A stretch of DNA of 48,593 bases, filler included, from Sphacelaria rigidula (GCA_964200075.2; 3 parts of 3 records of this genome joined end to end with filler, not necessarily neighbours in it), one strand, 5' to 3'. Shown: positions 16,132-48,593, counted from the whole stretch's first letter. Made by a program: numbers and translations. The notes: a model not told the origin generated them from the sequence alone.

Positions 16132-16231
16132 NNNNNNNNNNNNNNNNNNNNNNNNNNNNNNNNNNNNNNNNNNNNTTAATTAATTAANNNNNNNNNNNNN
16201 NNNNNNNNNNNNNNNNNNNNNNNNNNNNNNN
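16132..16231. other. Artificial scaffold-joining spacer
   Basis: N44-TTAATTAATTAA-N44. Confidence 0.97.
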
Positions 16232-24699: not shown

Positions 24700-27015
24700 A
24701 ACACAGATGCCTCCCCTCTGTCCCGATGTCCTGCATATGCCATTGAACATCGGGACGACGGGACGAGAGGTTAGCGGAGATACGATTGGTTGGCCATCGC
24801 GAAATACCATCAGCAACATCATTCAGAATCCCCGTCACGTCTTTCGCCTCAAACACCCATCCGGACGCTATTTCCAACATGCCAAGTATACGCATCAGAG
24901 CGCCCGATCGCGGCTCCTTCCCCCCTCTGCACTTATGTGCTCCGTCTCGAAAGGGATGCGTGGTCAATGGTCAAACGACTAAGGCAAGCAACAAATGAGT
25001 ACGCCTCTGCACTTATTCACCCAAGTCACGGCGGCTGAATTTTCTCCACGCAGCAGCACGCAATCAGTGCGATGTCGTGGTCGTCTCCCACCGAGAACAA
25101 ATATCACCCACGCCGACATGACCATACCCAACAGTTCCAGGACATTGATGGAGATGTCTTCTTCCGAGTGCACCGTATCACCTTTAAACTGATAACGTTC
25201 CTCACCGGAAAAGTCATAGCGCCACCACAAGCCCGACTGCAGACAATATCCGCCAACCGCAGCACCCGATGCGCACGAAAACAAGGACAGCTTGGGTGGG
25301 CGCAACACTAACTGGTACACCGGGGACGATAACACTGCTCCATCCCGCGACGAACCGTCACTAACCAGCCAACGCCACACGTTCAAATCATCGTGAAACC
25401 CCGGCCTCAAAACCACCACTCGCGACTTCCTCGCCGCCCTCTTTTGAAAATCACCCCCCGTCACAACACGGGACGAGGAGGGGTGGCGCACTCCTGCTGA
25501 TGCGAGCATGCGGTGCACAAAAACTTACCCGGACGCAAAACGTAGGAGACGTGTAGCAGGAAACCGGTCAACGAGGAAATGTCGCTCACTGTTACACCTT
25601 GCGGTCCTGAGCCCATTGCAACACCAACTTTTGCACTTTTGAGATTTTTGCCCTTGACGGCGAGATCGACAGAAAGTCAGTATCAATTATCCATCCCAGT
25701 ACTTCCAACCGGGTGTCCCACGCCGACATTTTGTTGGCGTCTAACAACGGGGGGTCATCCGCCCCCCTCTCACCCAGTAAACGATAATGATCTGATATCG
25801 AGGACCTCGACGCGCACAAACATCGCCTGCCGTCAGGACAATATTGTACTTCCACCAATATAGTGGCGTCAATGTAGATGCACATAAAAAAGGGATCGCC
25901 CACCCCGCCACCAACTCCCGGAACGGTCTTACAGTCCGGGGGCAGAGTTGCAACGCGTTCCTGTCGGCGTGATGCCATCTTGATAGACTGAGCATCATGG
26001 CGGCCGACATCCGTCACCGCGTGCGTGAAAAATGATGTGTTGTTGTGCGAGTGTTTCAAGGCTGCCACTAGTAACTCCCAAAGCCGGGACTGCTGCGCCA
26101 ACCGAATACCAGACACGGATCAACTACCGCCATATCACCAAACACATACCCGAAATAAGCGACGCGGACTGGGTCCACCAACACCTGGCGAAATGCCTCC
26201 TTGACATCAAGTTTACTCAGCACAACGCGGGCCGCGGGGCCAGATTTCTGTCGCAAGAGCAAAATCCGCATCAGAACTTTACGCAGCACCCCACCGATGT
26301 CACACGGCGGTGCCTACAAGACATCTGTGTCCGCATTAACACTGGTGTGCGGCGCTCGACGCGGGGGAAAAGTGAGATCATGTATGATACGAAATTTGGG
26401 GTGCACCACCACCCCAAGTGGGGAAACACGAAATAATTTAATATCGAAGATCAGCCTCGCGTCGAATACCAGTGTGCGACCGTTCATAACATCCAGGCGC
26501 AGCTGTTCATATATACGGTCCTGGTACTTATCCACCCTACTATGATTCCCATAGTTAATCGCATTAACCGAATCACCCCCGGGTTGGACATCAACTGGTA
26601 CACCCCGTTCTAGTACATCGACAAACAAAGTGATTCCGGGAAACCCTTGAGGTCACCAAACCATCGACGAACACCTTCAACGTCTACTTGCGATCCGAAA
26701 GGTTCTCGCCCTACTTGGTTAACGAAAACTTCAACCGTCATCACACGCGTGAAGCATGGTCGAGCCTATATCTGCAATGCGGGTAAGGTGCGCTACTGCC
26801 TGCGTGTCAGTCAGATTACCTAACTGCTTAACCGAATATTTCCTCCTCTTACTGCAGCATTGAAAATTAACGTCATCCCACACATCCAAGATACCAGAAT
26901 CACAGTTCGCCATGGAACCTGGGGCCAGCATATCACTCTCGCATCCGCCTTGCTGCCATCCCAGAGCGGCGCGTGCCAAGTCCCGCAACCCCATCTTATT
27001 TAGGTACGTGCGCAT
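24700..27015 (-). pseudogene. Reverse transcriptase + RNase H of YR retrotransposon (frameshifted)
   Basis: VSPLGVV..KFRIIHDLTFP; LSKLDVKEAFRQV; FGWRSSPG; YIDA (degenerate YxDD); LEVLGWIIDT; RNase H LFSCASG, INVLELLG, LRGENSAAV, NDVADGISR. Confidence 0.9.
24937..25003 (+). mobile_element. 67-bp structured mini-retroposon inserted in RNase H
   Basis: Perfect 13-bp TSD CCTCTGCACTTAT (24924-24936 / 25004-25016), duplicating the codons for KCRG. Confidence 0.9.
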
Positions 27016-29069
27016 TCCGACGCTCCTGTCCAGGATTGGCCCCGCCTCAACGCGAAGCCCGTCCCCCTAGCCCGACCTTCCTGCACGCGCCGCCGTACTA
27101 TTGCCACCGAGTGAACCCCCGTCCCCACTAGAACTCCCCCGCAGTCATTGCTCCCCTCGGCAATCCGAACTCGCGGCCCCGATACCTGCGTGGTCAGGGA
27201 CCGACTGCTGCCGCTGGTCCCGGAAACAGGGACCCCGGTGTCGGAGGTGCGGGTTCCTATGGGCCGGCCGGCACCACTACCGCCACTACTGGTGGCGACG
27301 CTGGAGTTGCCATCCCCTCCCGATTGTGGCACGTCGTGGCTGAACCTGCATCTGTCCCCCCACCGACAGTGGCCGTAGTCCAGAAAAACGAAGCATGGCT
27401 GCCTCCGTCGCAATCGCTTGGCCGCCAAGGACTCGCCGTCTCCGGCTGCGGTGCCCCAATTCCCTGCACCCCGGTTGCCGGAGCCCGATCCTCTCCCCCA
27501 CCCCCCCCCAGGGGTGGCGCTTTCTGTCCCCCTCCCTTCCGACGTGTCAAAGTACTCCGCTCTCACCATTCGTGCAGCGTTGACCCCGGTCTCGATGAAC
27601 GAGCGTAGCTGAGGAAAGGCGGAAACAGGTGCAGAAGGGAGAACGCCTGCCGGCGGTGGCGGAGAACGATTGTTCGCGAACAAGTGCTGCGATCACTGTG
27701 CCGAGGCGTCATACCACTTGCCGAAGTCAGAGTTGATGATGAGGGTCGTGGTATCAGTACCCGCGCGCTGCATCATCATATCGAAGTGGGCATTGGTGTA
27801 CGACCGAAGATCAGAGGTCATCTTCGCAAAGGCCGCTGTAAGCGCCCCCACCCGGCCGACACACATCGCGTCCTCTGCCCCGGATGGCGCTCCCAGACCG
27901 GCACCCAGCAAGCGCCCGAAGGCTTCACCCATCAGACCCAAACGGTGCGGCAGGGATATCTTGTCGCTCGAACTAGAACCCGCAGCACCGTGCGGCATGA
28001 TTGCTGCAACGTCGAGTAAGGAGAGAGTGCGAAAAATGCTCGCCAACTTCGAAGAGACATGCATCATAGCACCCAGGTCCCCCTGTAACCCAGGTGGACT
28101 GAATGACTGTGCCGGCGGTTTGCCGGTGAGGAGCCACCACTTGAGCGACGCGGCGTCCTGCCAAAGCTGCACACGATCCCGCACCTCGTACTTTCGTCGC
28201 TGCTCCACTTCCGCCCAAGCTGCAGCCTCGTTTGCCGCCTCCTGCTGTTCATCCCACGGCTGCACACTGGTCCACGACCCGCCTCCACTCACGGGTTCCG
28301 AACCGGCAAGGTTTGCAGTCTGCAGGTCGGTGTTGTCCCAACGAGCAGCGGGGGGCGCGGGTTGTGCTGCCGTCGAACCGATGTGGAAGGTGCTTGATCC
28401 GCAGCCAGCCTCTTCAAATTCCCCGCGCGGCTCAGCGCGTACCCCTGGAGTACCTGGCCATAGCACCGCTGGACGGGCTGGTGACCGCAGGGACACATCA
28501 CCAGCGACGGTAGTGAGCGGCCTAGCCGCCTCTGTGCCAGGACCCCTTACCGCCGCGTGGGAAAAGTTACCATCATCAGGGCGGCTGATAAATGCCACGG
28601 GCCTCGCCCCTGATGAAACTAACTGTTGGACCACCTCCCTCAACTGACGATCCTCGTCTGTAAATGAGGTCATCTTGGACCTCGAACCCTTCACGCTCGT
28701 CTTGGTGCCCTCAAGGTTGGCGGCGATGGCGTCCACGCGTTCGCTGATGCGGCCCATATTTTCGGTGATGTCGCCCACCTGGTTGTCCAAAGTATCGATT
28801 TGTTGGATCTTAGCCCGCGGCAATCCTACCGCCATCCTATCGTCGAGGGCGAGCCACCCCGACGCACGGTCATCAATGTGCGCGTCCCCGCTGTGTGCCG
28901 CAGACCTGGTGGAAGACGACCTCGTCTGGGGTGCAGGCGCGGAAGCGGGCGCCGCGGCCTTCTGTTTACCATTACTCCCCGCCCCCGTCGACGCTCCTCT
29001 GGACGACGGCATGTTGGTCAGAGCCGTGAAAACTGCAAATGAAAACTTCAGAAAACACTCGGGGCGCAT
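27000..29069 (-). pseudogene. ORF1/gag-like protein with coiled-coil segment and CCCH zinc finger
   Basis: ORFs 27693-29069 and 27000-27683 are the same frame split by one TGA; CFVFLDYGHCRWGDRCRFSH = C-x8-C-x5-C-x3-H; first ORF upstream of RT. Confidence 0.8.
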
Positions 29070-29372
29070 GAGCTACGGCAACGATTCGAGATATTGTAAC
29101 TCGCTGATAGTCGCGACGCCCGTATCCCGTAACTCGCTCACCTCGGGCTTACTCCACACCCCACCACTGTCGCTTAGTCGTGCTCGCACTTGCCCTTGTA
29201 TCTCGGTTGCTTCCTTTACACTGAGGCTCTGAACTGACTCACGCACTCGATCACATCACATCTGTTCCGAAACGACTTCAAGATACGTGAACCACAATCT
29301 AGGTCTGGAAAATTTCTATCCTCTTCTGCACAAAAGCTCGGCTCTTTTTAAACACAGAAATGAAGATTTTGC
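29035..29372 (-). repeat. 5' direct repeat (A1) of YR retrotransposon
   Basis: Direct repeat of 22019-22357, directly upstream of ORF1. Confidence 0.9.
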
Positions 29373-30712: not shown

Positions 30713-32307
30713 GTGGACCGAGGAAGCATCAAGCGTTTTCTACGTCAAAGATCTCGACTTTTAGAGAGGTTGTATCTGGCAAATGCACAAGGAGTCATAC
30801 AGCATGCTAGGGTGAGCATTGGACAACTTATTCCTACATACATTCACCGGTGCTTTGAAGGCATGTTCAAGGACCGTCGGGCTATGCCCCCCGACGAATT
30901 ACCAGACGCTGTGAAGCAGCATGCCGGGTACACCACAAACGGCGGCAAGCATGATACTGCGCGGGCTGCAGCAGACCTGCGTAGAGTTGTGACTGTGCCG
31001 CAAGGCGGTGGAACATCCGTCAAGGATAGAGCGATGATGGTCAATTCGTTGATGGAAACGTTTCTCGTGGAAAACCTCACGGTACAAGCCATGTACCGTG
31101 CGGAGGGCAGAAGCTGGTTGCCATGCCCGGCCGAGTCGGTTTCCAAAGCTTTGGTTGACGGGATTTCGCCTCCGGAATTCAAGGCGTACGTTAGAAGCGT
31201 ACTAGTGTATGTAGGCGTTTGGGAAAAGAATCCGACCGTGGTGTTCAACAAAATATTTGATGCCGCCGACCACTGGAAGTTCATTGAGGCGCATAGCCTG
31301 CGCGATTCTGCGGCAAGTGCAGGTGGTGCGCGCCGCAAACAACAACAGCACCAGAAACAGCAGCCGTCTTCGTGAGCTTCATCCACTCCCGCATGTTACA
31401 ACTGCGGCGACAACGGACACCTGGTGAAGGATTGCCCCAAGCTTCGCGCTCAAGGCGATACTCAAGGAAATGCGCGAGATTCATCAGGATTTCGCGGCGG
31501 TCGCCACAGTGGACGGGGCGTCCCGACCATGAAGGCGGGCGCAGCGGCCGCGGTAGCAAACGATCGACGGCGGATGGTGGTTCCTCCGCTGCTTTTTCGT
31601 CCACTACGTCATCAGGTGGTGACTCTGGACTTTCTGGTTCGTCCGTGTCGGGGCGGACAGTGCACGTGGGAAATGCAAATACTTCCGTGGGGAGTGCTGG
31701 AACGAATAGTTCGCAACCCCTCGGCCAGGCAGGATCCGTGCCTGGTGCATCTCCTACTGCTGCGACGGCTGTAACAGCGCTATCTGCATATTCGGGGACG
31801 TGGTCTGGGCGGACCGCCGATCCACGAACATTGATGCCAAGTACTGGAGCGCAGCCCTGGCGTCAGGTGACTCTTGGTACCAACCAGGGTTCATCGGTAG
31901 GTGTGGTACCTGTTGATCGCAATGCAGAGTGTTGACGCGCAGATCTTCCCTTGCCTGGTTCCGTAAGTTCGTTCATGGCCCGCGTTATTCTCAATTCTGG
32001 GTCCGCGCTCACGTCCATCGGTGTGGGGTCGCTAGAACAAATGTCTTCGCAGTTTGGAGGCGCTCAGCTGCAGATTCCGTTCGAGAATTGACCACAAACG
32101 GCACAGACCGCCACGGGTGCTCCCGTGACGGTGACACATGAAACTGTGCCGGTTTCTGTTGGCGTGCGTACGCCGTGGGGGGCTGTGGAGTTGCAGCCCA
32201 TTACTTTCGCTGTCATGCTCGGTAGGGACAACGTGGTTCTATTTGGGATGACGACGATGAAGGAGCTCGGGATTGGTTTGTATCCGCTGGCGTTGGATAA
32301 GTTACAC
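30713..32307 (+). mobile_element. Ty3/gypsy LTR-retrotransposon remnant: gag (CCHC knuckle) + aspartic protease
   Basis: Gag-like ORF continues in frame past one TGA into CYNCGDNGHLVKDC (31394-31435); VILNSGSALTSIG (DSG to NSG) at ~31984; cut by a MITE and the segment end. Confidence 0.8.
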
Positions 32308-32362: not shown

Positions 32363-32462
32363 NNNNNNNNNNNNNNNNNNNNNNNNNNNNNNNNNNNNNN
32401 NNNNNNTTAATTAATTAANNNNNNNNNNNNNNNNNNNNNNNNNNNNNNNNNNNNNNNNNNNN
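32363..32462. other. Artificial scaffold-joining spacer
   Basis: N44-TTAATTAATTAA-N44. Confidence 0.97.
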
Positions 32463-33511: not shown

Positions 33512-35130
33512 TCATCTCAGGTGATCCCCGCTTTGTAGGCTTCCAGTCCGCTCCTGCGAAGTAGCAGCACCGGAACCACTACCTTCTGCACACCATAGAG
33601 CAACAATTCCTATGGTACGGTAGCTCCTAGCAGCCACATCTAGCACCCCCATGATGCATCTCAGCATGCCATCAAACAGCATATCCTTACTGCCGAACCA
33701 ATGCGACAAAAAATCTGCCTCAACACAAGCTTGCGCATCTACGATTTCTTCTGTTTCAGTCGCTTTTTTAGGCGAAAGGAGAGGTGAAACGGGAAGAACC
33801 ATACAGTCCCGCATAGCAACAGCTTTCGAAGGCACCACATCATCCTCTTTAAGCACCTGACCTGATATCATATGAAATATCACGCATCATTCGCTTACAT
33901 TTACGATGGGACAACGGCGAATTGACCATCCGAAATCTGCGATCCATCAGCGCCTTAAACGCTCTCACCGCACAATTCTTCACATGCCATCCCATATTGC
34001 CGACCTCCATACCTCCGGCGATCCCATCACGTATGCTTTGAACCATGTCAGAAAATGCTCCACCTTCTTCGCCTCCACACTTGACTTTGTGGGCTCCAAC
34101 CACACGAAGTTGCTTACACCGTCTTTGATCACCAAATTATCTTGGATCGGATCTCCGTCGTCCAACCCACCATTTTCCAGCTGACCACTCGCTCCATCGC
34201 TGAGGAAATTGAATTCCATCACCTCCTCCGGGCGAGTACCCTGCACCTTATCCCCACCATGCACCATATCCTCGTGGGGAGGGGGGATGTGTGCCCCCAC
34301 CTTGGATTCGCTCACCCGTCGCGAGCAGAAATTTCCCAGCATTTCCATCGCCGCTCTCTCCAAGCTTGACTGCAAACTGCAGTATAGTAACCTAAACGCC
34401 ACTAGAACTGCAATGCACGAAGCTAGCCACCCGGCCTTGACCGGATCGTTGCAATTAGGCTGGGCCTTCGCAGCCGTCAGCTGTGACTGTGGCTGCACCT
34501 TCATAGGCGGTACGGCTCCACTCTCAGGCGCTTCCTCTTCCTTTCCACCTGCATCCTTCTTGCTCTCACTTTGGAACGATCACTCAGGGACGATCACCCG
34601 CCTTGCCGAAAGATAACTAGGGTTGTTCACGCCGGTCTGCACCGGCACAGCACGCGGGCGTAACTCTTCCAACACCAGCGGATACGAATCAATTCCCAGC
34701 TCCTTGATTGTCGCCATGCCGAATAAAACCACGTTGTCCCTACCGGGTATGACAGCGAAAGTAATGGGCTGCAACTGCACCGCCCCCAACGGCGTACGAA
34801 CGCTAACGGCAACTATTTTAGTGTGTAACCGTCACGGGAGCACCCGTGGTGGTCTGCACCGTTTGCGGTCTGTTTTCAAACGGAATTTGAAGCTGAGCGC
34901 CGCCAAACTGCGAAGATATTTTCTCAAGCAACCCCACACCAATCGACGTGAGAGCGGACCCAGAATCCAGAATAACGTTGGCCATAATCGAACCTACAGA
35001 ACCAGGCGAGGCTAAATCTGCGCGGAAGCATTCGCCCTTGCGATCGACAGGTACCACGCCTGCCGAAGAACCCTGTTCTGTCCCAATAGTCACCTGACGC
35101 CAGGGCTGCCCTCCAGCACTTGGCATCGAT
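33512..35130 (-). mobile_element. Ty3/gypsy remnant: protease joined to integrase fragment, RT/RNase H missing
   Basis: VILDSGSALTSIG protease, closely similar to 31830-32305; integrase-like HG..RPEEVMEFNFL, LVIKDGVSNFVWLEP, SPLSHRKCKRMMRD. Confidence 0.8.
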
Positions 35131-36249
35131 AAACAGGGTTTTTTTATAAAATGAGGTTCATCAATGAAATGAGGTTTGAAGACCCTAGCCGTTGAATGAC
35201 AAAAAGCCCTCAAGAGTACCGCACGAGCACTGATGTGCAATTTTGGGGAGGAGTAGGCAGTACGTCCGTGGTTGCACATGCCGCCCATCCCTGGTTAGCT
35301 GCGAGCGACGGACCATAACAACGTTTGTTTGATTGTCGACGAAGTTCTCACTATTGCTTGTTTCGAGGCTCGTGTCCAGACAAAACTCTCGGGCGTCAAG
35401 TTGCTCGTCAGTGACGTGCTGGGGGGATATCACTGCCAACGCAGTGATGTGCCGAGCGGATGATTGGGCGTCCACTGTCCTGAAGAAGGGCACGTAAAAA
35501 CGCATCATTAATCTTCTTCATTGACGGCCGATGCACAACGTGAATAATGTTTTGCACGACTCAACCGTACTGCAAATAGCTGTCGAGCTTTCCAATCCGG
35601 TTCGAGCATATATGATGCGGCAATGTCTCAGTCGAAAGAGAAATCATTGGCATCCACCCCATCATCGCTTGGTACGGTCCCGTCATACACACCATCGCAA
35701 CACCCCATCATGCTACATGACAGCATCTCGACCCCGCCCTGAACTGTACGTTCGCGTCCGCATCCCGACTAGTATATGAACCTATTGCTTTCACTCTCCA
35801 ACTGCGCCACTGTAACTCGAGACTCCAGCGTCATCACTATTACTATCGCAATCACCACCATCATCACCATCGCCATCACTTCCAGTATTACAGTCGTCAT
35901 GGTCATCATTGAGGGCTACCTCATCCTCCAACACTTCTCGACTCGTGTCGCGTCTGACCCTCGGCCACCTTTGCTCGAATCCCGGCCCCCCGGCCCACCT
36001 ACGACCAGATCCCCGGGAGTGACCGTGATAGGCTGCTTCGCGGTGAGCCTCCCTTTCATCTTTCGACTCTCTTGCACATTGGCTATTACAGCATGCTGCG
36101 TACCATCTGCGCTGCCTATCGCAGCGGTAACGTACGAGTCTCTGGGGCCGTTGTGAGGTTTTTTGGACCTTATCCCTATCACAACCCCCTCCCCGCCCGT
36201 TTTGATTGCATGCCACCTTTGTTCACGTCCCGGACTTCCCCCTCTAGCA

Positions 36250-36322
36250 CGTCCCGTCCCGTCCCGTCCCGTCCCGTCCCGTCCCGTCCCGTCCCGTCCC
36301 GTCCCGTCCCGTCCCGTCCCGT
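36250..36322. repeat. (GTCCC)n pentanucleotide microsatellite
   Basis: About 14 tandem units seen directly. Confidence 0.95.
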
Positions 36323-36505
36323 TCGGGTAGGGGAGGGAGGGGTTCATAGGTGTGCGGGTTTTGTTTTCTAGTGCACCCCCGACATCCCTTCAAATCATGA
36401 GACACCCGCGTAAATATCAGGACGCAAACGGCGGTAAAAGTCGAGGGAAAAGAGGACGACGGGGTCACAGTGTCTTTATCGCCACCCATGCAGCGCTGTC
36501 CGTAC

Positions 36506-38233
36506 CTCCAGCTTGTGGCAGAAAGTCTGTGAAGCACCCGTCATGATCTTTTCGGTCGTGTCTGCCGGACCCCGAACCAGCAATCCTCCCGGCGTAGTGT
36601 CTGTGGGCAGCGCTGATGGGAGCAGCGTCGGCCCCACGTACACCTCGCCGCTGATATCATACTGCCGGCAAAGGTGACGCATGAACACAGGCGAGGTCGG
36701 GGTCATTGGTGTGAGATTCATCTGGCACATCAGATATAAGTCGCGAGTAATCAAATCCGACCTGGTGCCTGCGCATCGGCCAAAGACGCGGAGTAAGGAT
36801 CGCGATACCTCGAGCAAGCATTCGGTTTTTCGGGGGCTTGCCTTCAACATCCCCGACATGAAAGCCTTCTGAAATGCCCTCTCCATACGGCCCCCAACCT
36901 CGGTCGTGAGACCGCGGTTGTGGAGGAAGAGCTCCGTGGGACGGCCAAGCTCGAGAGCGACTTCCAGTAGCTGCGTGCTCTCCATCCCGATCCCCATCAC
37001 GGCATCTCCTGCCAGGGGGAACCTGTCCGATGACAGTACGATGATCCCGACGTCATGAAAGATTCACCACAACTTATCACTGTGGGGAGCATTCTGAGTT
37101 TGATGATTCCTGCTCGAAGCTTTTGCTGAGACTTGTCCCAACATGTGTTACCACGTGCATGCATTCCTCGGATCTCTCGGGTATTTCGGACTCCCCTCTG
37201 TCTGACAAAAGCACGACATCCAGAAGTAACACACATATATATGCGGGTGTTGTTGGCCACAACGCCTACAATGACGTCGATTCATCTCATGTCTTTCACA
37301 GCGTGGCATGTTCCAGCGCCACCCGCCCACCGGAAGTGAAATTTCCACTAGGATCGTCGAAAGGGCATACGGTGTCACATGGGAAGGAGGATACGGGGTC
37401 AGAGAATATGTAATCACCTGTTGATGAACGTAGTCAGAACCCGCGGCGGGAAGGAATTCACAGGCCCCCCAACAGACCCGCCCTGCTTGTACGCAAGCTT
37501 GTCTTCTGCCCCCCCGCCCATCTTTTGCCAGCATTCCGGCACTTTGCCATTGCTCTTCGTGCCGTAGGGATCGGCGAAGGTCATCCTTGGGTTTACCGTG
37601 AATGTTTTGTTCTCCTCGCTCGGGTGCTTGTGTGCCATCATAATGCCCTCCGTGTGAGGGTAAAAATGATACTTCTTGTGTTTCTTTCGGGAGCCTCCGT
37701 GGCGGTTGGAGTACTCTACTAGCACGTAGTCGTCTTCGACCACCATGGAAGGGTCGGCTTCGATCGCGCCTGCGTAGGGGTGCGCACCGCGGTGGATCGC
37801 AGCGACGGTGGATGTTCAGGGGGTGCGAGGGGAATATCTACATCATCACAGGACGCCGTATCAGAGCAATGAATCATGTAGGATTGCGCCGATGCAATGT
37901 GACGGACTAAACGAAGCAAGCAATTTACCCTATCCGCGCTCGTGTGGCGGATCCCAACTCAGACGTGTCTACCCTGTTATCAGCAACATCGATGCCGTGG
38001 TTTTGCCCGCCACGAACCGCGCAGACCGTGATACCTTGGATACGATGTCCGTGTCGATTCCAGGGCCGCGGGACTGCAAAGGCGATAGTGCCCATCGGGT
38101 GCAAGACTTCCAGCGCTTTTTCAACGAACCGCCTGAAGTATCCCTTGTTGTCATCGTTTGTCGTGCTCAGCATTGTTTTCTCGACATGGATGTAGACTAT
38201 GATGAGCTTCGGCGGTCTCTTCACAGGGAGTGG
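36506..38233 (-). CDS. Degenerate N6/N4 (beta-class) DNA methyltransferase-like domain, three exons
   Basis: Open spliced frame: KLIIVYIH..YFRRFVEKALEVLHPMGTIAF..FYPHTEGIMMAHK..SFPPRVLTTFINRFPLAGDAVMGIGMESTQLLEVALELGRP follows the N6_N4_Mtase motif order; DPPY and FxGxG not conserved. Confidence 0.65.
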
Positions 38234-41200
38234 CTGTTGTTGGTCAACAAGAGTGCAGTGGCGGCGGAGTAGATTATCCTCGTGTATGCTCGTGTGATGA
38301 GCCCTGTGCAATATCACGTCGTAAGCACGCAATAGCATCGTCAGGTTCCCTTCGTCGCGCGCTGGTCGTCCGCATGTCGCGGGGTGTAGTGTGTGTTCTC
38401 CGATATAGCCCCCTCCCGAGAAAGTGGTTGGTTTGGGGGGGCAACAACCAACACGTAAAATCGATATGAAAAATACCCTCATATTGAGCAGTTTGGAATA
38501 TTAACGCTTCTGTTTGTTTTCGCCCATATCGAGTAAACAAGGCCCTCCATGCACTCTAAAATCGATCATTACGCGGTGGATAGCCATTGTTTTGGTGGCG
38601 GTTTTGGGCTGGCGTTGGGGTTGGGGCTAATCCGGTGTAATTGTTCGGCGTGTGTTCCACTACGGTGGCTAGGCTGGCGGCTGTGCCGCCAGGTTTTCAT
38701 AGTCGAGCAGTGCGCGAGGTTGATCGAACTCGTCAACGGCTACCAGGATCATACTCACCGCCTTCCCCATCATGTATCACTGGAGATGGTATACATGGAT
38801 ATTTTCGAATTCTGCCGTACCAATGGCGGTCAAAATTACCGCGCACCGTCGTCCTCAAGGGCCGAAATTTAGGGAAGGCACCTACGAACAGCTGCGCTTG
38901 ACAGTCCAAGTGTTGCATGTCGACCGACTTATGCATGCTGTCACAACCATCGTCGAAAGAAACAATCGAAAGGCGAGCTTCAGTCGATGACACCGTCTCC
39001 ACAACGGCATCCTATCCTCGCACCTTCTGCTTTACACGGTGGGACCGGCAGGGGGGAGCAATTGCCCTGCTTGTGACGATTTCTTCCCTTTTTTCTTAGG
39101 ATTCCCTCCGCCTCTGACCCCGTCAGTTTTGTCCCTTTTCCTCTTCTGGCGCCCCGGCTCGTTCTCGCAGACCAGGCGAAGACATCGCTTCCTCTCGGCA
39201 AGAGACGCGTCCTCGGAGATAGGCACAAGCAGCTCACAGAAGGTCTGGTGCTTCATCCCGCAATATACGCAATGGTATCTGCAATTGCGAGGACGGCATG
39301 ACAGTGTCGAGCGGTTGGCGGTGTTCCAGGCAAGGTGATTGCTGTTTCAATCATTACACGAAGCGTTATTGCGGACGGTAGCATTGTGCTCCGCGAAGTC
39401 AACTGGTGTGCTCGGCATCGTCGGAACGGCTTGCATTTTGATTCATGCTATCCCTTCTCACCTGACGTCTGATGATGGGTTGCACGATGGGCACGATTCG
39501 TCTTTGCGGCTGCCCTCAGCCGGTCGTTGACAATCGCTATCATTCTCCCTAGATTCACCTGCATCCTCGTCGTCGCTTTTCTCGCCGCCCGCATTCGCCA
39601 ACTTCAAACGAGCGATGGTGTTGTTGGCCTCGTCTCACCTCTTCCTCCAGGTGTCGTTGTACCGCCTCAGGGCCCCTCTGTGTGCTTTCTGCGAAAACGG
39701 GCGGTGGTTGAAAATGTAGGTGGGCAACCTCGTGGAAATGTTTCAATTGTCTCCCGATCACGTTGCTTGATCAGACATTCACCCTTGTTGTGCCCATGAC
39801 TGCGCGATGACTGGCATGCGCCAATTTCGCGCGTCACAAGCCCGTTCTGCGCGATTAGGATATATTCATCACAGCAGCATGTCCGATCCACCTTACATTT
39901 GTATGGTCTTGGTGACCTATCGCCCGAATTACTCACTATCCAACATCCAACTCTTGACTTTTGTGCGTCGATAACGTACCGGGTCCAGCCGCCGATGGAG
40001 TTTGCCCAAATAGACATCTTCGAACTCCTTCATGGCTGCCCCGTTCCGTTCTTCCTCGGGCAAGCTTGCCCGTGTCTCTTCTATGCTGTTGTCTACTGAT
40101 GTGATGAAGTCCGTGACGTGCAGCTTGAATTTCTCCAGCCCGTATGTGCCGCGTGTCAACTCGCGAGAAGCCCTAGTTGCAATGATGTTCGCGGAGCGCA
40201 AAATACATCCCGTGAGCGTAACTACGCTTTTGCTCTTCATGCTAGTAAAGTCATTTTTTGATGCTAGTAATTTCACTAAAGGTTCAGGTCGTGGAGTACA
40301 ATTTATGCTCGAATTTTCACAAAACATGTTCTCGATTTATGCTCGCAAGATGGGATTTATGCTCAATTATGCTCGCAATATCCAACAAGCGCGCCATTTT
40401 CGACCGGATGTAGACCCACCGATCACTACATGCACATTACACACAGTGAATATATGTTTAGATATGTGAAGTGAAACAAAGAAACGAAAGTCAGACCGGC
40501 AGTTTGAATGACTGGTTCCTCAATATTCACGTATTTCAGACCCCGGTTTGAAAATTATTATCGAGTACGCTACTTGCTGAAACGCTGCGCTATTTATACC
40601 ACCTGCTGAAACGCTACGCTTTTTATGCAAGGTGGAATGATGCCAGAAAGTGTGCTAGCATAAGGGGTGCAAGCCTAAGTGTGACACAAACATGTGCTGC
40701 ACACGCAATCCTTACTTTCGAAATTCTGTAGCCTACGACAACCGTTGTGGTCCACCGCAGTCGACGCGCGTGTTACAAATAATGCAAACTTACTTTTCGA
40801 AGACGTCGGTCCACGCCTCACGAGGGATCTGCCTCTCTGAACGTTCCAGGAGGGTTGCGGTTGTTTGTGCATCAGTGGAGATACGTCCCTAGTCACTTGC
40901 TTTAGGATTCGTCTTGTTCGCCGTTTGGAACCTGCAAGCAACGCGAATATATAATGTGTGCTGTGAAGAGTACATAAGACTTTTCACCCGTTAGATGCTG
41001 CATGACGGGACCAAGGGAAACCGCGTGTGGCGGAACTGATGTCCCGCCCAACGGCAATTCTGTCTGGTGCTCTCGTTTTCGGAGGCCTTTCCACGGGATC
41101 TTGAATGTACAAGAGTCCGATGTTGATGAGAAACATTTTCGTCTGAAAACGGTCATCATCGCCGATGTGCAATAAGTGATGTCATGATCCATGTTGAGCG

Positions 41201-42250
41201 GTGTGTGGTTAGAGGGAGGCCGCTCCAGCGCGTTCCTCAGCGATGCACGGTCGGCGTCTGTATTTTTGTGGGCGTCGGGTTCGGGTGCGTTACACTACGC
41301 ATCGTACGTCGAAATCCTCAGTGATTCACCCTGACGCAAGATGTGATAAAGTAAGGGTCATGGGATTATCTGGCCGCATTAGACAGGTGGTGTGTACCTG
41401 ACGAGCATGTTGATCGCGGTGGCTTGGGTCTGGGGTTTATCATGTAGGTTTGCGTACTGCTTGCTTTTGAGAAAAGCCAGGGATATGGCTCCCGAGTCAA
41501 CGCCTCGGTTGTCGCATTGAAACGCCCAAGCGATGGCCTTCATCGCTTCTGGCGATGTCGACACAACCGCTATTTTCCAATGCCGCAGCGTCATGGACGG
41601 GACCCGCACGTGCAGCTGTCGGTTTCAAGAGGGGGCGGGGGTACCGGCACGCATTGGGGGACGAAGGAAACTTGTGTTACTGTCGAGCATTTCCGTTTTT
41701 GCTCGGGCCATCGTCACGCGATTCAAGTTAACCCGCGCGCGCTGACAGAGCGCAGTGGACGAACAATACGGAGTTCAGGCGGGCAGAATAACCGGGCGTA
41801 ATCCAACACCATCAACCGTTCTCTAGTATCTTCATCGGACTTATTCGGAAACCGTGGGTGTAAGCAGTGAGCGTGAGAGATGATCGGACGAAGGAAGTGA
41901 TCCACTGACTCCAGATCCGAATCAAGCAACCTCAATCAAAGCCACACACGAAAAGAGCAACTTCGACTGCAATACGCGAAGTTGACGACAACCATACTAG
42001 CGACGACAGCATTTATGGTCACACCGCGGCCGCGAGGGTGTTTATTTGATTGGGGGTGCTTATTTTTAACCCGGGTTGTGCGTTTGTAGAGCGGCAATAG
42101 GAAGTGGCTTCAAATTTCCCGGAAAAGCCGCAAGGCACGTGGGGGGGGGGGGGGGGGCCCGGCCAGGGAAAGATGCGTTAGGTAGGTTCGAGGGAAANNN
42201 NNNNNNNGGGTGGGGAGGCGCGAGGTGGGGGTGGGTGCTAGTCGCACGGA

Positions 42251-42282
<32 letters not shown>

Positions 42283-43024
42283 GTTCCTGCCATGGACAGA
42301 TGCTGTATGTACGTTACAGGGTAAACAGTACTGCATTACTTCGTTGTGTTCTCAAATCTTGTAGCAATGTTCAGTCTTGGCGAAAAAGCAAGGGATCGTG
42401 TAGTCACTTCCCTTGCCAAAAAAGTGCTGTAATAAAAGTGCGCATGGACTGCCTGCAGATACCTTTTTTCTCACTCCGATGTGGTGTTCATCTCCAAACC
42501 TTATCGTCGGACCCCCGGGCACGTACGTGCGAGTCGCAAAAGTCGGGAAGTCCCAGCGGATCGAGGCGATGCCGAGTGCCAACGAGGTGTGGTGGCGACA
42601 CAAACGTCTCCGCGAGCCGCGACCGTGTGGAAGTCGCCAGAGTGGGAGAAAATATCCTAAGAAAGTGTTGGCGACAGCAACTACCCTGGGGCCGCTTGTC
42701 GTGCGTTGCCGCAATGGGGTGCGGATTGTATGGGCTAGTCACCCCCGCTCACATGTGGATACAAACATATACACGCCCCCGAGCCCTGGCAATAAGTGAA
42801 GTGACAACCAAAAGAGCAGGCGTATGTACTCTTCCTGCAGCCGACTGCCGCGTCGGACCGTAGTGTAGGGCGTAGCATCATGGTCTGTGTCATACAGTGC
42901 ACGCCACACTCTAGTGGAGTCAGCAATGCGGTACAGCAGCGGTGTCGGTCCCGTGAAACGGTATACTCCGATCTACTCGAGCACGCCACTCAGGCCGCTT
43001 CTTATAACAAACTGAAATCAAAAC

Positions 43025-43440
43025 CTGGAAAGCTGCTTTTTTGGAGCTCTGGCATAGTTTTACGCCTCAACAGAGAGCTAGGCGGAATTCGACACCTTGT
43101 AATGATTCGCTCTACTCATTGAGGTGGGTCCAGGACATTTCCCCCGTTCTCCGTGGCCGCAGTTTTTATTTTGATCAGAGAAGAACTTTTGTCCAGGAAG
43201 GGTCAGGTCCAGAAAAATATGGCGAATATATGGCGAATTTCTCTGTATTTGACCGTATTCGACTCTTCTTGAACTAGAGTTCTTGGTTGGCGAAAACTAA
43301 AACTGCGGCCACCGGAGAACGAGGAAATGTCCTGGAACCCCCCCAACGAGTAGAGCAAATCATTCCAACCTGCCGGTGTCCGCCTAGCTCTCGCTTGTGG
43401 CTTACGACGACGTGAAAGCTCCAGAAGAGCACTTTTTCAG
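43025..43440. mobile_element. Foldback/MITE-like element with long imperfect inverted arms in intron
   Basis: GAGAGCTAGGCGGA..GCTCTACTC..CCAGGACATTTCC..GTGGCCGCAGTTTT mirrored at 43299-43392. Confidence 0.75.
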
Positions 43441-44206
43441 ATTCCCACTCACCTTCATAAACTTCTCTGCAATCGCTTCCGCTCCGACGTCATTTTTTTT
43501 CGAGCGACCTTGTACGGAGCCGAGGATCCCCATGAACATATAAAGTTTATCGTATTTGTTCCGTTCTGACAGCGTCTCTCCCACCTCGTTCAAGGCTGCG
43601 CCGTTGTGCCGACATGGATACGTGGAGAGGGAACGTTTTGACGAGGTTGATTATGGATAATGACTCGTGAAGTCGGTGTTTTGTGGGCTCCAAATTTAAG
43701 AACTGAGGAAAAACTTCATTTTTTGAATTGTAAATAATCAACAAAGCTTCGAATGCCCAACTTATCGTCTTGCCCTCATACTAGAAGGCGCGCCTCGTGA
43801 GGGGATACTACTACAACGCCACAACAAAGACGGGAATAAGGCGCATAAAGCACGCCTGATTTAAAAAAGCTGGAAACGGGTCTTACAAACAAAAAATAGT
43901 TTATAAAAATAAATGGAGCTTGATTTCAACACAAACACGCACATACGCCAAATAACACCTGTTTACAGGATCATTCAAACTCCATCCAACTCATTCTCAG
44001 CTACGACCGCAACCCTGCAGCATAGAGCACGAGTTGAGCACAAGGATGGATACCCGTAGGAGTTGGGTGTGCTTTGTTTATTTTTTCTTGGCGAAAACTT
44101 GGGCACATTCTCTCATGGCGCAGGCATTAGGGACGAAACTGCGTGGTACGGTGGGCACTCGAGTTGCGTGCACGCTATTGGACGAAGCAAGCAGTCCAAA
44201 GCTGCA

Positions 44207-44515
44207 AGGGTAGGTCGAGTAGAGTATACACAATTGCGGGGTATTTTGCAAGACTAACTTAAGGTACTCAAAATTTTGTAGATTATTCGGAGTCGTACCC
44301 ACAAAATAACTGGAGCGCGATCCTTGCGGACTGGGGCCCGAAAAACCAATCCACGGGAGAAAATCGCCTGTAGACGGGCTGAAATCCTCCTATTTGTAAA
44401 AATCAGGGTTTGTTGCCGTAAAAGTCGGTCTAAAACCCTACCCTCAATCCGTGTACTGTGAGTACGACTTTCAAAATACCCCGCAATCGAGTGTACTCTA
44501 CTCGACCTGAACTTG
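44207..44515. mobile_element. MULE-like MITE in intron
   Basis: IR AGGTCGAGTAGAGTA..TTGCGGGGTATTTTG; 10-bp direct repeat CAAAGCTGCA at 44197-44206 and 44516-44525. Confidence 0.7.
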
Positions 44516-44742
44516 CAAAGCTGCACTGTCTTTTTGGGATCGAAAGCTTGAAAATCCATACGCACCCAACTTCATCAAAACGAGAAATTTTTGCTTGGAT
44601 CGATCCTACCGCCCCAGCGCCGGGAGGTGCGGAGTAGTTTTGGGGAGGGGCTGACCCTGTGCAGACTACTGCGAAATCAGAACAAACACCTGCCGAGCAC
44701 CAAACCACAAGGTGCGATTTCAGGTGTGAAAGTGCGACTCAC

Positions 44743-45160
44743 CGTCTCCGATAATGCGCATTTCGCTGGTCGATATATCCCTGTACACATTGCATGGAAT
44801 ACGCTTCTCCAGCCCGAAGATGCGCTGTCTTGCTTTGACTCGGTGGTTGCCGTCAAGAACACGAAAATAAGCGCCTGCCATGGCCTCAGCAGTGGCCAAA
44901 TTACCTGCCTCGCTGCTAAGTACGACGGCTGGTGGGTTGTGAGTAAGCCACCCATTCATCTTTATAGACCTCATGACGTCTTGTAGTCCTCGCGGATTCA
45001 GTTCCCTCGACAGCGACGTTAGAGTCAGCTGGCTTAGAGGGATGTCGAAACGTCCAACGTGCCGTTTGTGCAACCAAGCCTCCAGCTTACTGCTTGCCCC
45101 TGCCGTATCGAGGGGGGAGGGTGGAACGCCTTCATCGGCGACCCTGAGAGCCGCGGCCAT
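44743..45160 (-). CDS. ParB/Sulfiredoxin-like domain exon
   Basis: SRELNPRGLQDVMRSIKMNGW...PAVVL...YFRVLDGNHRVKA...IPCNVY matches the ParB/Srx signature; ends at G|GTGAGT donor. Confidence 0.85.
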
Positions 45161-48088
45161 TCCGCTGTACTACAGGTCGAGTATCAGGATCGCGCTAGCT
45201 GTGACTTACTGCCCGGATGGAATGGGTGTGATGTGAAATGGTCTGGACGGTGTGCGGGGGCGGGCGCGTTGGGTGATGCCCCGGCGTTTATTTTCACGTT
45301 GTGCGCAGGCATAAGCACGTACGGTGCACATCCCGGGACATCTTCAACCTTACCCCTCAGGGGCGACGTGCGGACATGTCACCGCACAAGCGGGTGCTTC
45401 CAAGTTCACATGCCCGTTGTTTTGAAAATCAGAAGGTTGCAGGGCTCATACGTTGCGTGATGTTGACACGACAAGACGGATAAGACAAGGTGTCGTGACT
45501 TCATCGTGCGTACTGTTGCGTTCGGTCCCCGTCATGAGGAATGCTGCAGAGGAATTTCGGTTATGCAATTCGCCTGAATACCATCCGTATATACGGCATG
45601 TAGTTGCAAAAACTTTTGCCCCGCAGAATTTTGACCGCAGAAGCACAGATTTGAACTCGAAATTTCATTTTCGATCTGTAATGAGTTTTCTGGCGGTTAT
45701 ATGCCCCTACGAGTGTACAGATGACCAAGGGGGTTTCGATCGAAGCTGTACATATGCCTGTATGCCTGTGAACAGTGCTTCACAATGCCACCTAAAAAAT
45801 TGTGGTCATCACGGAGTACCGGTTCGCGGAGATGCGCTTGTCCACTCGACACCTACGTCCACCCCCATGAACTCAGTGTCCCCTGAGCCACTCTTTCCTG
45901 TATCCGCTCCATAAACAGCAGTCTTCACCACCCACCATGCCCTTGACCGAGGCTGGCCGCCTTTTGTTCTCGCGCGTTTTGCAGAACACTCCACCCCTTG
46001 AGGCGGTCAACAACGTTTCCAACATAAAAACCGAAGCTGCCACCGCCCCATGTACAACCCCTCTACCTGGCCCCAAGTGCATAAAGCCGCGAACCGACCT
46101 CTGCACGATGATGGCTACGTCTTTCCGCTGCTGCACGACATTGGACTGTGTCGGGAAATTGGTCAAAGGGACGCATGATGCGCAGCGGCTGGAGCTGGAA
46201 CAGCAGGACTGCGCTAGGTTGATCACGTCTTCAGCGAGATTTGCCTGAGTTCAACGGCAAGTGCCATACGAGAAGCTCGGGCCGCGCAAGGGCTCTATGA
46301 TTGCTGCGGGGAAGTACGTTTGTAATCGTTATTTCTCGCAGGCGTATCGGGTGTCGAGTAATCTACTGGAGAACGCCAAGCACAACCCAAAGGCACGCCG
46401 GAGACGGGGTATCTCGTGAGTACTGCTATGTGGCATGCGATCGAGCACGTGTTTAGATAGGCAACGCCCTGAAGTGTGTCCCGCCCAGTATGTCTCCGAG
46501 CCGTCATATATTTTCGCGGCTAGCCGTGTATATTCAAACCTGTGCCGGAGGTAAGGTGCATTTCGGGCATGCCACCTTCGTGTACGTTGCTGGCGACTCC
46601 CCCCTCGATGACTCATTTCGCATATTTGTTTCGCTGACATCCCTCATAATTCGGGCCCCCTTTTCACACGTGCTCTGTCGCTCCAATGTTGTGTCAGTGG
46701 GTGGGGCTTATGGGCCCCGCTTGTCTTCGTCTTGCGTGGAAGCACAGTGTCCTCGCCTGCTCCCAAATGCACACCTCAGGCCGACCGCGGAAAGTGTGAC
46801 TGTACATGTAGCGACTGACCCCTCGGCTGCAACTTGAACTTGAAGTAGCGTATTGAGTATGTCAACGGAGATAGGCATTAGCTCCATGAACCGGTTTTTA
46901 CAAAAAAACTAAGCTAATTTTTAGATTTTAATAAACACTCCCCCCTTGTTTTATGCCTCACTTTAGGCTTTTTTCAGCGAAAATATGCCCCTTCGCGTCC
47001 TTGTTGTGGCGTTCTGGCAGTATCCGCTCACGAACCGCGCCTTCTAGCATGAGGGGACAATTTGGGTATTCGAAGTTTGAAAACATGTTCTTGCTTGAAA
47101 AATAGGACTTTCCTCTGATCATTGAGTTTGAACGCCACCCCAAACCACCTATCGAAACAACGTGTCCGTACAAAGGGTATGATATATATATACCATATGG
47201 TATATATGTCATACCCTTTGTGTCCGCACTACGTACACTCATGATATACATGATGCAGCAGTGGATCATTGCAGCCTCTGGATACAGGGTATTGCAGCCT
47301 TTGGCCTCTCGCCATATAGCTTCAAGCTACAAGCTATAGCCCCCCCCCCCCCCCCCATCATCTACCACCAGTCGACATGTGAAATCACATTGTCACGAGA
47401 CTGTCTCCTGCTGCTTTCACTGCTTACCCCCCCCAGAACGCCGTAGGTTGTACGCTATACGCTGTACGCTGTATAATGTACAATGAACCCCATGGTACAA
47501 CTTTTGTACAAAATATACATTACATTTTTCCATTCAACCTAGTATCGAATATATATACAACATAACACAAACAGAAACGTCTTCCGGATCAGGCCCGCAA
47601 CCATGGCAGTTTGGAGTACTGCAGTACTATATTGAATATTGAAGTCAGTCCGGTGACGAGTGATGCCATGGGTCGTAGGGAGCACTTTCGAGCAGCTGAT
47701 ACACTGAATGCAGGAGGCGCGTAAAAAAATATATCGCAATTTTATGCGCGTTTCGAGCACATAATAAGCTATTCGAGCATTTTAAGCTCTCTTTGAGTTT
47801 TTCGATAAAAAAGCTTAGTTAAGCCCGATAACCCCAAATTAAGCTAAACCTCAAGCGCGCTTACGGAGCTAATGCCTAAACGGAGAGCGTTTAAAGTATC
47901 GCTGGAATCATGATATCATGTGGCTTTGAAATTCAAAACGGGAGCCCGCCGGATGTTGCCGTCGCTGGCACAACTTCGATCCCCCCCGAGAGACGAGGTG
48001 GTTACATACGATGGTGCGTGGGGTTGTTGATGGGTTCACCCCCTCTCGGTGGCGACACGAAGCTATCCCCTCTGGCCCCAGCTTCTAA

Positions 48089-48479
48089 ACTATATTCGTG
48101 AGATTCGGAGTGTAGTTTCAGATACAGAGTCAGGATTTCAGACGGAAGAACTGTTTTCTTTGTGGTCGATTCTTATGCGAAACAGTTCGCGTCACTAATC
48201 CACCAACATTGGAGGCTGTGAAAACACGCACGTTCATTACTCGGATTGGTTGATTGGTGACGCGAACTGTTTTCTTCGTGGCCGACTCTTATGCAAAACA
48301 GTTCGCGTCACTAATCAACCAATCCGAGTAATGAACGTGCGTGTTTTCACAGCCTCCAATACTGGTGGATTAGTGACGCGACCTGTTTCGCATAAGAATC
48401 GACCACAAAGAAAACCGTTCTTCCGTTTGAAATCCTGACTCTGTATCTGAAACTACGCTCTGAATCTCACGAATACAGT
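48089..48479. repeat. Near-perfect long inverted repeat (~185-bp arms, ~20-nt loop)
   Basis: 48089-48272 is the reverse complement of 48295-48479 with few mismatches. Confidence 0.92.
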
Positions 48480-48593
48480 GTTTCTTCCTTTTTAAGTTTT
48501 CATCACGCCTTTTTCGGCAGGTGCCAGGAATGCCCCCCCCCCCCCCCCCGCAATCGGGGGCCGCGGGCAGGGGGGGAAGAGGCAAAAGAAGAA

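Follow-up and report, generated by a model that had tools for sequence, protein, structure and literature searches.

Why should a gene that looks like bacterial ParB sit, split by introns, in the genome of a brown alga? The question is raised by a stretch of Sphacelaria rigidula DNA (GCA_964200075.2) of 48,593 nucleotides (nt), filler included, made of three parts joined end to end; we call this whole stretch the window and count all positions from its first letter. A preliminary description had read three exons on its minus strand as an intact ParB core resembling that of an enzyme hydrolysing cytidine triphosphate (CTPase-like), followed by a helix-turn-helix (HTH) segment, and had proposed a nuclear, nucleotide-dependent DNA-binding protein rather than a sulfiredoxin (Srx). 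Our own answer, to which we give a probability of roughly 0.72, is that the gene is a decayed copy of a repeated and transcribed family, namely the ParB-plus-DNA-methyltransferase accessory gene of giant algal DNA transposons.

The front end of the gene is made of exon 1 (45160-44743), exon 2 (43595-43453) and exon 3 (41615-41398), whose borders lie exactly where they had been placed before. Joined, these exons amount to 779 nt, that is 259 codons and 2 bases, free of stops, with phases of 1, 0 and 2 at their respective ends; intron 1 reads gtgagt...gcgcag, intron 2 reads gtgagt...cgacag, and the donor after exon 3 is gtacac. Exon 1 starts with the ATG at 45160 and encodes the N-terminal domain, of ParB/Srx fold, with a Box I-like Arg (R52) and a Box II made of D103-G-N-H-R107 (44854-44840) followed by A110. 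The ALNE motif (residues 140-143) straddles the exon 1/2 junction; exon 2 encodes the helix with its conserved Asn (N142) and the start of a helical, DNA-binding-like region, and exon 3 a helical, HTH-like segment. The closest named homologue, P0004, a 301-residue "unnamed protein product" of Sphacelaria rigidula at NCBI, is colinear with exons 1, 2 and 3 by tblastn, with E values of 6e-31, 1e-13 (residues 136-189 on exon 2) and 2e-16 (residues 196-253 on exon 3), and exon 1 alone, searched against 1.84 billion representatives, has matches in 97 proteins at E ≤ 1e-3, of which 21 reach E ≤ 1e-10 and a single one E ≤ 1e-30. The frame of exons 1-3 is, thus, far beyond chance. These three exons are the intact 5' third of a longer gene and encode a bacterial ParB-like DNA-binding module; the word "intact", used earlier of the core, holds for them and fails for the gene as a whole, which has about ten exons and three in-frame stops. 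We also considered the intron position after exon 1 as a family-wide conserved feature and dropped it, as the pattern of hits reading on into "G-E/K" past exon 1 is found in only 23 of the 96 family rows.

The fold of the N-terminal domain was modelled with AlphaFold on P0004, using a 96-row family alignment (A1). The model has a mean predicted local distance difference test score (pLDDT) of 75, with values above 90 in the N domain (residues 20-140) and of 46-83 in the helices that follow. Compared with the PDB by Foldseek, it gave 17 matches at E ≤ 1e-3, at the top of which stand the Bacillus subtilis ParB-CDP (cytidine diphosphate) structure 6sdk (1.2e-5), Noc, Myxococcus ParB, KorB, Caulobacter ParB and PadC, with sulfiredoxins doing no better than E 3.6e-3. 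With VIA-align (P0004 residues 26-145), chain 6sdk_A aligns over 95 residues with Z 11.9 and a root-mean-square deviation (rmsd) of 2.4 Å, and the other ParB-type chains score 11.9 (7bnk), 11.6 (7bm8), 11.0 (PadC), 10.0 (KorB) and 10.0 (pNOB8 ParB). Over the Spo0J/ParB, Noc and KorB structures as a set (6sdk, 7bnk, 7bm8, 7ng0, 8qa8), the N-domain fold is shared with Z 10-11.9 and rmsd 2.1-2.5 Å on 91-97 residues. The structure comparison with Spo0J and KorB that had been proposed as a check places the P0004 model nearest to the CTP-binding proteins ParB, Noc, PadC and KorB, and the model supports a ParB/Srx fold closer to the ParB clamps than to sulfiredoxin. Beyond the N domain, only the pNOB8 ParB and KorB alignments extend to residues 195-199. 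As for the HTH, a helical region does follow the N domain as claimed, and the HTH-like segment itself is predicted as helices only, at pLDDT 46-76.

The same fold is found in sulfiredoxin and in other small enzymes using adenosine triphosphate (ATP), such as SerK and SbnI, and the family shares with sulfiredoxin a G-x-H-R phosphate-binding motif. Sulfiredoxin is a single-domain enzyme of roughly 100-130 residues with the motif GCHR, one residue away from the GNHR found here. Reading the gene as a sulfiredoxin or as a SerK/SbnI-like enzyme nevertheless has next to no chance of being right: structural scores are lower for sulfiredoxin (Z 9.1 for the Arabidopsis protein and 7.7-8.2 for the human one) and for SerK and SbnI (Z 7.3-8.6) than for ParB-type chains, none of the 96 rows has a Cys at the column of the sulfiredoxin nucleophile, GCHR being absent from all of them, and the protein has more than 700 further residues in a total of about 919 codons. 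The choice of ParB over sulfiredoxin made in the preliminary description was, in this respect, well founded.

Column counts from the A1 alignment show which residues the family holds on to. Arg occupies the Box I place in 90 of 94 rows, and the Asp before Box II is kept in 87/96, the Box II Gly in all 96 and the Asn after it in 87/96; the His of GNHR is present in 94 of 95 rows, the Box II Arg in 90/95 and the Ala that completes GxxRxxA in 74/95, and the Asn of ALNE is found in the 6 rows out of 6 that extend into exon 2. The copy in the window keeps every one of these residues, and its Box II, G104-N-H-R107-V-K-A110, does fit GxxRxxA as had been stated. P0004 itself has DGNHE in place of DGNHR and is the sole row of 95 with a Glu at that position; because the Box II Arg is replaced in this unique way, the P0004 copy may itself be non-functional, judging from its sequence.

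With GxxRxxA and its Box II Arg, the Box I Arg, the Box III Asn and a helical region after them, the family resembles the ParB clamps; it differs from them in having GNHR for GERR, no Box III Glu or Arg, and a long tail of eukaryotic type. In ParB, the Box II Gly is followed by a Glu on which hydrolysis depends and then by an Arg. Where this catalytic Glu would stand, 87 of the 96 rows of the family have Asn and a single one has Glu; where the first GERR Arg would stand, 94/95 have His. There is no Gln ahead of the Box I Arg, as in a QPR-type motif, and the Box III place in the window reads L-N-E-V-G, with the Asn kept and the Glu and Arg of ENxxR absent. The label "CTPase" is not supported by these observations, and ParB-type hydrolysis by the family appears doubtful because the catalytic Glu is Asn. 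Nucleotide binding by the DGNHR module is plausible all the same from its residues. According to the survey PMC12704722, binding of nucleotides by ParB-fold proteins depends on the Box II Arg, orphan ParB-fold proteins bind CTP, ATP or guanosine triphosphate (GTP), and nucleotide specificity is predicted neither by sequence nor by AlphaFold3.

Kinship with ParB can also be seen, at lower strength, in profile comparisons. The family aligned by hhalign with 7 plasmid ParBs (chosen via PF02195) gives E 4.8e-4 and a probability of 32% over 92 columns, from Box I to just beyond Box II; against a single Deinococcus plasmid ParB, E is 0.065, and GERRWRAA is aligned with G-N-H-R/E-x-x-A-A of the family. 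The PHROG entry phrog_1033, a "ParB-like partition protein", is matched by exon 1 at E 0.013 and by the family member P0090 at E 0.0024, and another member, P0016, also weakly matches several ParB PHROGs. In Pfam, neither ParB_N (PF02195) nor any other family is matched at E ≤ 1 by P0004, P0016, P0090 or the longer relative P0026 described below. Weak Pfam matches (E 0.004-0.03) occur among the 96 members to DUF1015 (n=6), GmrSD_N (n=5) and ddrB-ParB, DndB and DUF6551 (n=1 each), which we take to be families of the ParB/Srx clan.

The gene goes on well beyond exon 3. From canonical splice sites, and guided by P0004 and by a second Sphacelaria protein, P0101, which has tblastn matches downstream, we built a model of about ten exons (45160-36476, minus strand) with 919 codons, in which all frames join and nine exons have canonical AG/GT borders. 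Exon 4 (40794-40931), homologous to P0004 and P0101, contains an in-frame TAG; exon 5 (39980-40172) encodes a coiled or helical middle part matching P0101 residues 179-237 (tblastn E 2e-14); exon 6 (39462-39688), also homologous to P0101, encodes an acidic linker with an in-frame TGA; and exon 7 (39024-39278), interrupted by an in-frame TAA, encodes a Cys-rich segment and a basic stretch (KRKR/KKKGKK). The C-terminal region, methyltransferase-like, starts in exon 8 (38035-38303, containing LEVLHPMGTIAFAVPRP and colinear with P0026 residues 590-650), continues in exon 9 (37418-37769, colinear with P0026 residues 650-723) and ends in exon 10, probably the last (36476-37022; coding 37022-36479, stop 36478-36476), where a G-x-G stretch, DAVMGIG, is found at about 37006. 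The acceptor of exon 10 (37024-37023) is putative, having been picked from the reading frame and a visual comparison with P0026, and one contig (X4 contig 18) speaks against it by running continuously over 36998-37164.

Contigs from four public runs of one organism (X1, X2, X4 and X6) were compared with window positions 36400-45300, and they bear out the splicing. Contigs of X4 and X6 stop at the borders of exons 1, 3 and 4: X4 contig 24 covers 44743-45183 and carries 40 extra letters that do not match the intron, X6 contig 31 covers 44745-45034 with 109 extra letters, X6 contig 30 covers 41396-41621, that is exon 3, and X6 contig 29 lies on 40796-40933, over exon 4. The X6 joints 40167>40796 (with 7 letters fitting neither side), 39689>39982 and 38303>39025 agree with introns 4, 5 and 7 at single-base precision, provided that mismatched end letters are allowed. 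With its GT-AG borders, the colinear P0004 and these contig ends, the splicing of the three front exons stands as it had been claimed.

The sole full-length relative that we found, P0026 (843 residues, from EukProt), gives a view of the intact protein. Residues 29-684 of the model and 31-723 of P0026 align in one colinear stretch with 23% identity and E about 5e-35, most of this E value being owed to the N domain; among the stretches shared are the Cys-rich and basic segments and blocks such as LEVLHPMGTIAFAVPRP versus YDILHPRGTVIVAMPNP. A protein search with P0026 returned P0026 alone, and for the window frame 37417-37815 no longer homologous protein was found. Taken from the gene model and P0026, the order in the family protein would be a ParB/Srx domain (R…DGNHRxxA…N), a helical and probably HTH-type region, a coiled middle, a Cys-rich and basic stretch, and a C-terminus with the look of an N6/N4 methyltransferase.

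The copy in the window cannot make this protein. Its first stop is a TAG at codon 274 (40891-40889, exon 4), where P0004 and P0101 have Trp, the second a TGA at codon 388 (39637-39635, exon 6), where P0101 has Trp, and the third a TAA at codon 528 (39034-39032, exon 7), so that it could yield at most a 273-residue fragment made of the ParB-like and helical parts. The contigs differ from the window at two of these places. Position 39635 is C in them, giving TGG, with depths of 1211.4/1211.4 in X1, 39/60.9 in X2 and 25.5/25.5 in X6, and position 39034 is C, giving GAA, with a depth of 1175.2/1279.1 in X1 and full depth in X2, X4 and X6; the position of the first stop is not among the 40 contig differences listed, out of 389. 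On the same 8.9 kb stretch lie short contigs of 92-99% likeness, 4468 from X1, 3394 from X2, 241 from X4 and 240 from X6, and the pieces over exons 1 and 3 differ from the window by about 5%. Many diverged copies clearly exist, then, and some of them are spliced.

These results bear on two readings in which the locus would still be at work. The first, in line with the preliminary description, takes the locus for a single, working host gene whose product is a ParB-type DNA clamp, nuclear and dependent on a nucleotide (CTP), and it can call upon the ParB-like fold, GxxRxxA, the Box I Arg and the Box III Asn, as well as upon exons 1-3 being open with all family-conserved residues kept. We consider it decidedly unlikely, given the three in-frame stops downstream in the same gene, the many diverged copies on the stretch and the change of the catalytic Glu to Asn in 87/96 rows; nor were a ParA partner, a parS site, a ParA-binding motif or a C-terminal dimerisation domain identified for the family protein. 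A two-copy complex prediction with P0026 residues 25-265 scored 0.25 (mark 0.32) and ignored the alignment, and is evidence neither way. In the second reading, which we also hold to be unlikely, the TAG of exon 4 would be a real stop and the locus would be in use as a truncated gene, whose 273-residue ParB-plus-helical product would act as a repressor or competitor at the DNA sites of the family. The frame is open to codon 273 with the N-domain conserved residues all kept, and contigs that are possibly RNA lie over exons 1, 3 and 4, though, at 92-99% likeness, they may come from other copies. This stop, however, lies upstream of six more spliced exons, a position that normally triggers nonsense-mediated decay, the two further nonsense codons point to relaxed constraint on the whole copy, and no contig was matched to exactly this one. 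The nuclear protein proposed in the preliminary description is better read as the product of one member of a repeated family that is transcribed and has a methyltransferase-like C-terminus.

This C-terminus was examined through P0026. In the ESM Atlas, all 30 of the 30 neighbours of its residues 560-843 belong to clusters of PF01555 (N6_N4_Mtase), with scores of 0.90-0.92; by the tool's own figures, such a match is a lead rather than a proof. The last 281 residues of P0026, modelled by AlphaFold without an alignment, reach a pLDDT of 34.9, which makes the model unusable, and the G-x-G stretch DAVMGIG is seen only in the window's last exon. From these features, the region appears methyltransferase-like, and its catalytic competence is doubtful.

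Genes joining the two functions are already known, and the window gene is probably a newly found, broken member of a published class, the ParB-plus-methyltransferase accessory genes. The nearest description is that of Dinatale et al. (PMC12477816), who report in Ectocarpus a gene of 1104 residues with ParB-like and DNA methyltransferase parts, opposite the transposase in the 21.5 kb element Sola1-1_Ec32, and describe giant elements as carrying nested insertions, with genes that are often pseudogenised. That gene and the window family are both brown-algal, multi-exon, transcribed and set in a repeated element with nested repeats. They differ in length (1104 residues versus 919 codons here) and in that the methyltransferase motifs of the window family are unrecognisable and neither of its domains is detected by Pfam, and the window was found to contain neither a Sola1 transposase nor AACCG…CGGTT termini. 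Elsewhere, chlorophytes and chytrids are reported to have fusions of ParB-HTH with Dam-type methylases (PMC4738411), a ParB-domain accessory gene is carried by red-algal Plavaka elements (bioRxiv 10.1101/2025.02.11.637652), and ParB-fold plus N6_N4 methyltransferase fusions occur in phages and prophages (PMC12704722). The phage and prophage fusions, as described there, share with the algal family their domain order and their association with mobile DNA, whereas introns, a Cys-rich insert and a coiled middle set the algal family apart. An example from a Ralstonia megaplasmid (L015/L017) has clear DPPY and FGGSGTT motifs, and both of its domains pass Pfam, unlike those of the algal family. In this example (NC_003296, about 711.0-712.1 kb), which joins ParB_N to an N6_N4 methyltransferase, the DPPY and FGGSGTT parts lie in different frames, which suggests a frameshifted gene or a sequencing error.

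Residence of the window gene in a transposon is suggested by its repetitiveness and by analogy with these elements. The repeat nature is supported by contigs across the whole 37.0-45.3 kb stretch, and other repeats are nested inside the introns. Intron 1 holds one or several very high-copy repeats at 43825-44715, including an inverted pair (44192-44267 / 44453-44528), where the summed word depth of X1, which is not a copy number, is 6e4-2.5e5, versus about 1-2.5e3 over exons. Intron 2 holds a foldback, MITE-like (miniature inverted-repeat transposable element) insertion at 43022-43443, with 205-nt arms that are 71% complementary, and summed contig depth is high in the bin 42934-43230. An N gap (42198-42207) also lies inside intron 2, between long poly-C runs, and the true length of this intron is, therefore, uncertain.

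Brown algae carry integrated phaeoviruses, and the locus might, on another account, have been left behind by a large DNA virus that had integrated (a phaeovirus or some other giant virus) and not by a transposon. When the P0004 model was compared with a viral fold library by Foldseek, 58 matches were obtained at E ≤ 1e-3, with phage Spo0J/ParB at the top and a few giant-virus proteins among them (Orpheovirus, Cafeteria roenbergensis virus, Faunusvirus and Bodo saltans virus). Against such an origin, which we regard as very unlikely, stand the nine spliceosomal introns, with positions used in spliced contigs, the many diverged copies, the unrelated repeats nested in introns, and the 84 open frames scanned, among which there is no viral hallmark gene.

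Coming back to the decayed accessory gene of a giant transposon, several points weigh against it. Around the gene, the window showed neither a transposase nor terminal inverted repeats nor a target-site duplication, and inspection of 35100-36500 by eye gave no clear terminus; the element may extend beyond position 48593, where the window ends. Sola1-1_Ec32 was compared through its published description. The summed depth of contigs is not equal to copy number, and X4 and X6 are taken to be RNA by guess only. On the ParB side, the modelled P0004 is only 46% identical to the window protein and itself has DGNHE; exons 1-3 match no Pfam family at E ≤ 1 and no NCBIfam at E ≤ 10; and HMMER searches of PDB sequences with exon 1, the family profile, P0090 and P0016 found no ParB, the only matches being at chance level (E 0.13-1.6; tyrosine kinase CapA/B, phycocyanin and similar). 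On the methyltransferase side, the call comes from language-model features alone: P0026 does not match PF01555 in Pfam at E ≤ 1, the motif (D/N/S)PP(Y/F/W/H) is absent from both the window model and P0026, and blastp and hhalign against three bacterial PF01555-bearing reading frames gave no significant similarity, with a best E of 0.12 over a 22-residue "LHPRGT/LAPGGK" stretch.

If the accessory-gene reading is right, the protein made by intact copies could work as follows. The ParB-like module would bind a nucleotide through the Box II Arg and would probably not hydrolyse it as ParB does, the catalytic Glu being Asn; together with the helical domain, it would anchor the protein on the DNA of its own element, and this anchoring would bring the C-terminal methyltransferase-like domain to the element. 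A bolder version can be imagined, in which members with an intact DGNHR would form a eukaryotic, nucleotide-gated ParB-type switch loading at the repeats of its own transposon, and the degenerate methyltransferase-like domain would serve as a reader or decoy and not as a writer. We find this version rather unlikely; if true, it would be a device for self-marking or anti-silencing of the transposon, with details that have no bacterial counterpart.

Some other features of the window deserve to be recorded. About 2.9 kb upstream of the gene's ATG lies a foldback array (48089-48479) with 185-nt arms, 95% complementary; the 20-mer AACAGTTCGCGTCACTAATC occurs in it four times, alternating between strands, against an expectation of 0 in shuffled sequences. 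The array may be a MITE-like element. Inverted-repeat arrays have been reported beside red-algal ParB-domain accessory genes and, by analogy, the array could also be a candidate binding site, its link with the gene being speculative. Just 3' of the gene's stop codon is a perfect (CGTCC)x14.6 microsatellite (36250-36322). Further away, the inverted repeats 31830-32305 / 34660-35130 (about 470 nt in total, 83-86% complementary, enclosing about 2.3 kb) have the appearance of a further DNA transposon or foldback element. A pair of long open frames that adjoin each other (459 and 230 residues, 27003-29072, minus strand), the second with a CCCH zinc finger (zf-CCCH_DUS3L, E 3.8e-8), and a separate frame at 31376-31771 (plus strand) with a CCHC zinc knuckle (E 1.2e-7) are probably gag-like retroelement genes. 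An open frame at 12250-12891 (plus strand), matching the C-terminal part of the Pfam amino-acid transporter family Aa_trans at E 8.8e-17, probably belongs to an ordinary host gene as one of its exons. Besides the gap in intron 2, N runs are found at 7739-7748, 16132-16231 and 32363-32462, the two long ones being built as N44-TTAATTAATTAA-N44, with the look of a scaffolding linker.

Nucleotide switches of the ParB fold have been well studied in bacteria and, to our knowledge, nearly only sulfiredoxin has been characterised for this fold in eukaryotes. A recent survey describes the fold as widespread on mobile elements and as binding CTP, ATP or GTP (PMC12704722). As a pseudogene, the copy in the window is of value only as a pointer to its family, which goes undetected by Pfam and yet has a strongly conserved phosphate-binding motif. 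This family would offer a tractable eukaryotic test case for a transposon-borne ParB module, both for the binding of nucleotide and for that of the DNA of its own element, and it raises the question of whether the methyltransferase-like domain writes N6-methyladenine (6mA) or N4-methylcytosine (4mC), in a group where DNA methylation is poorly understood.

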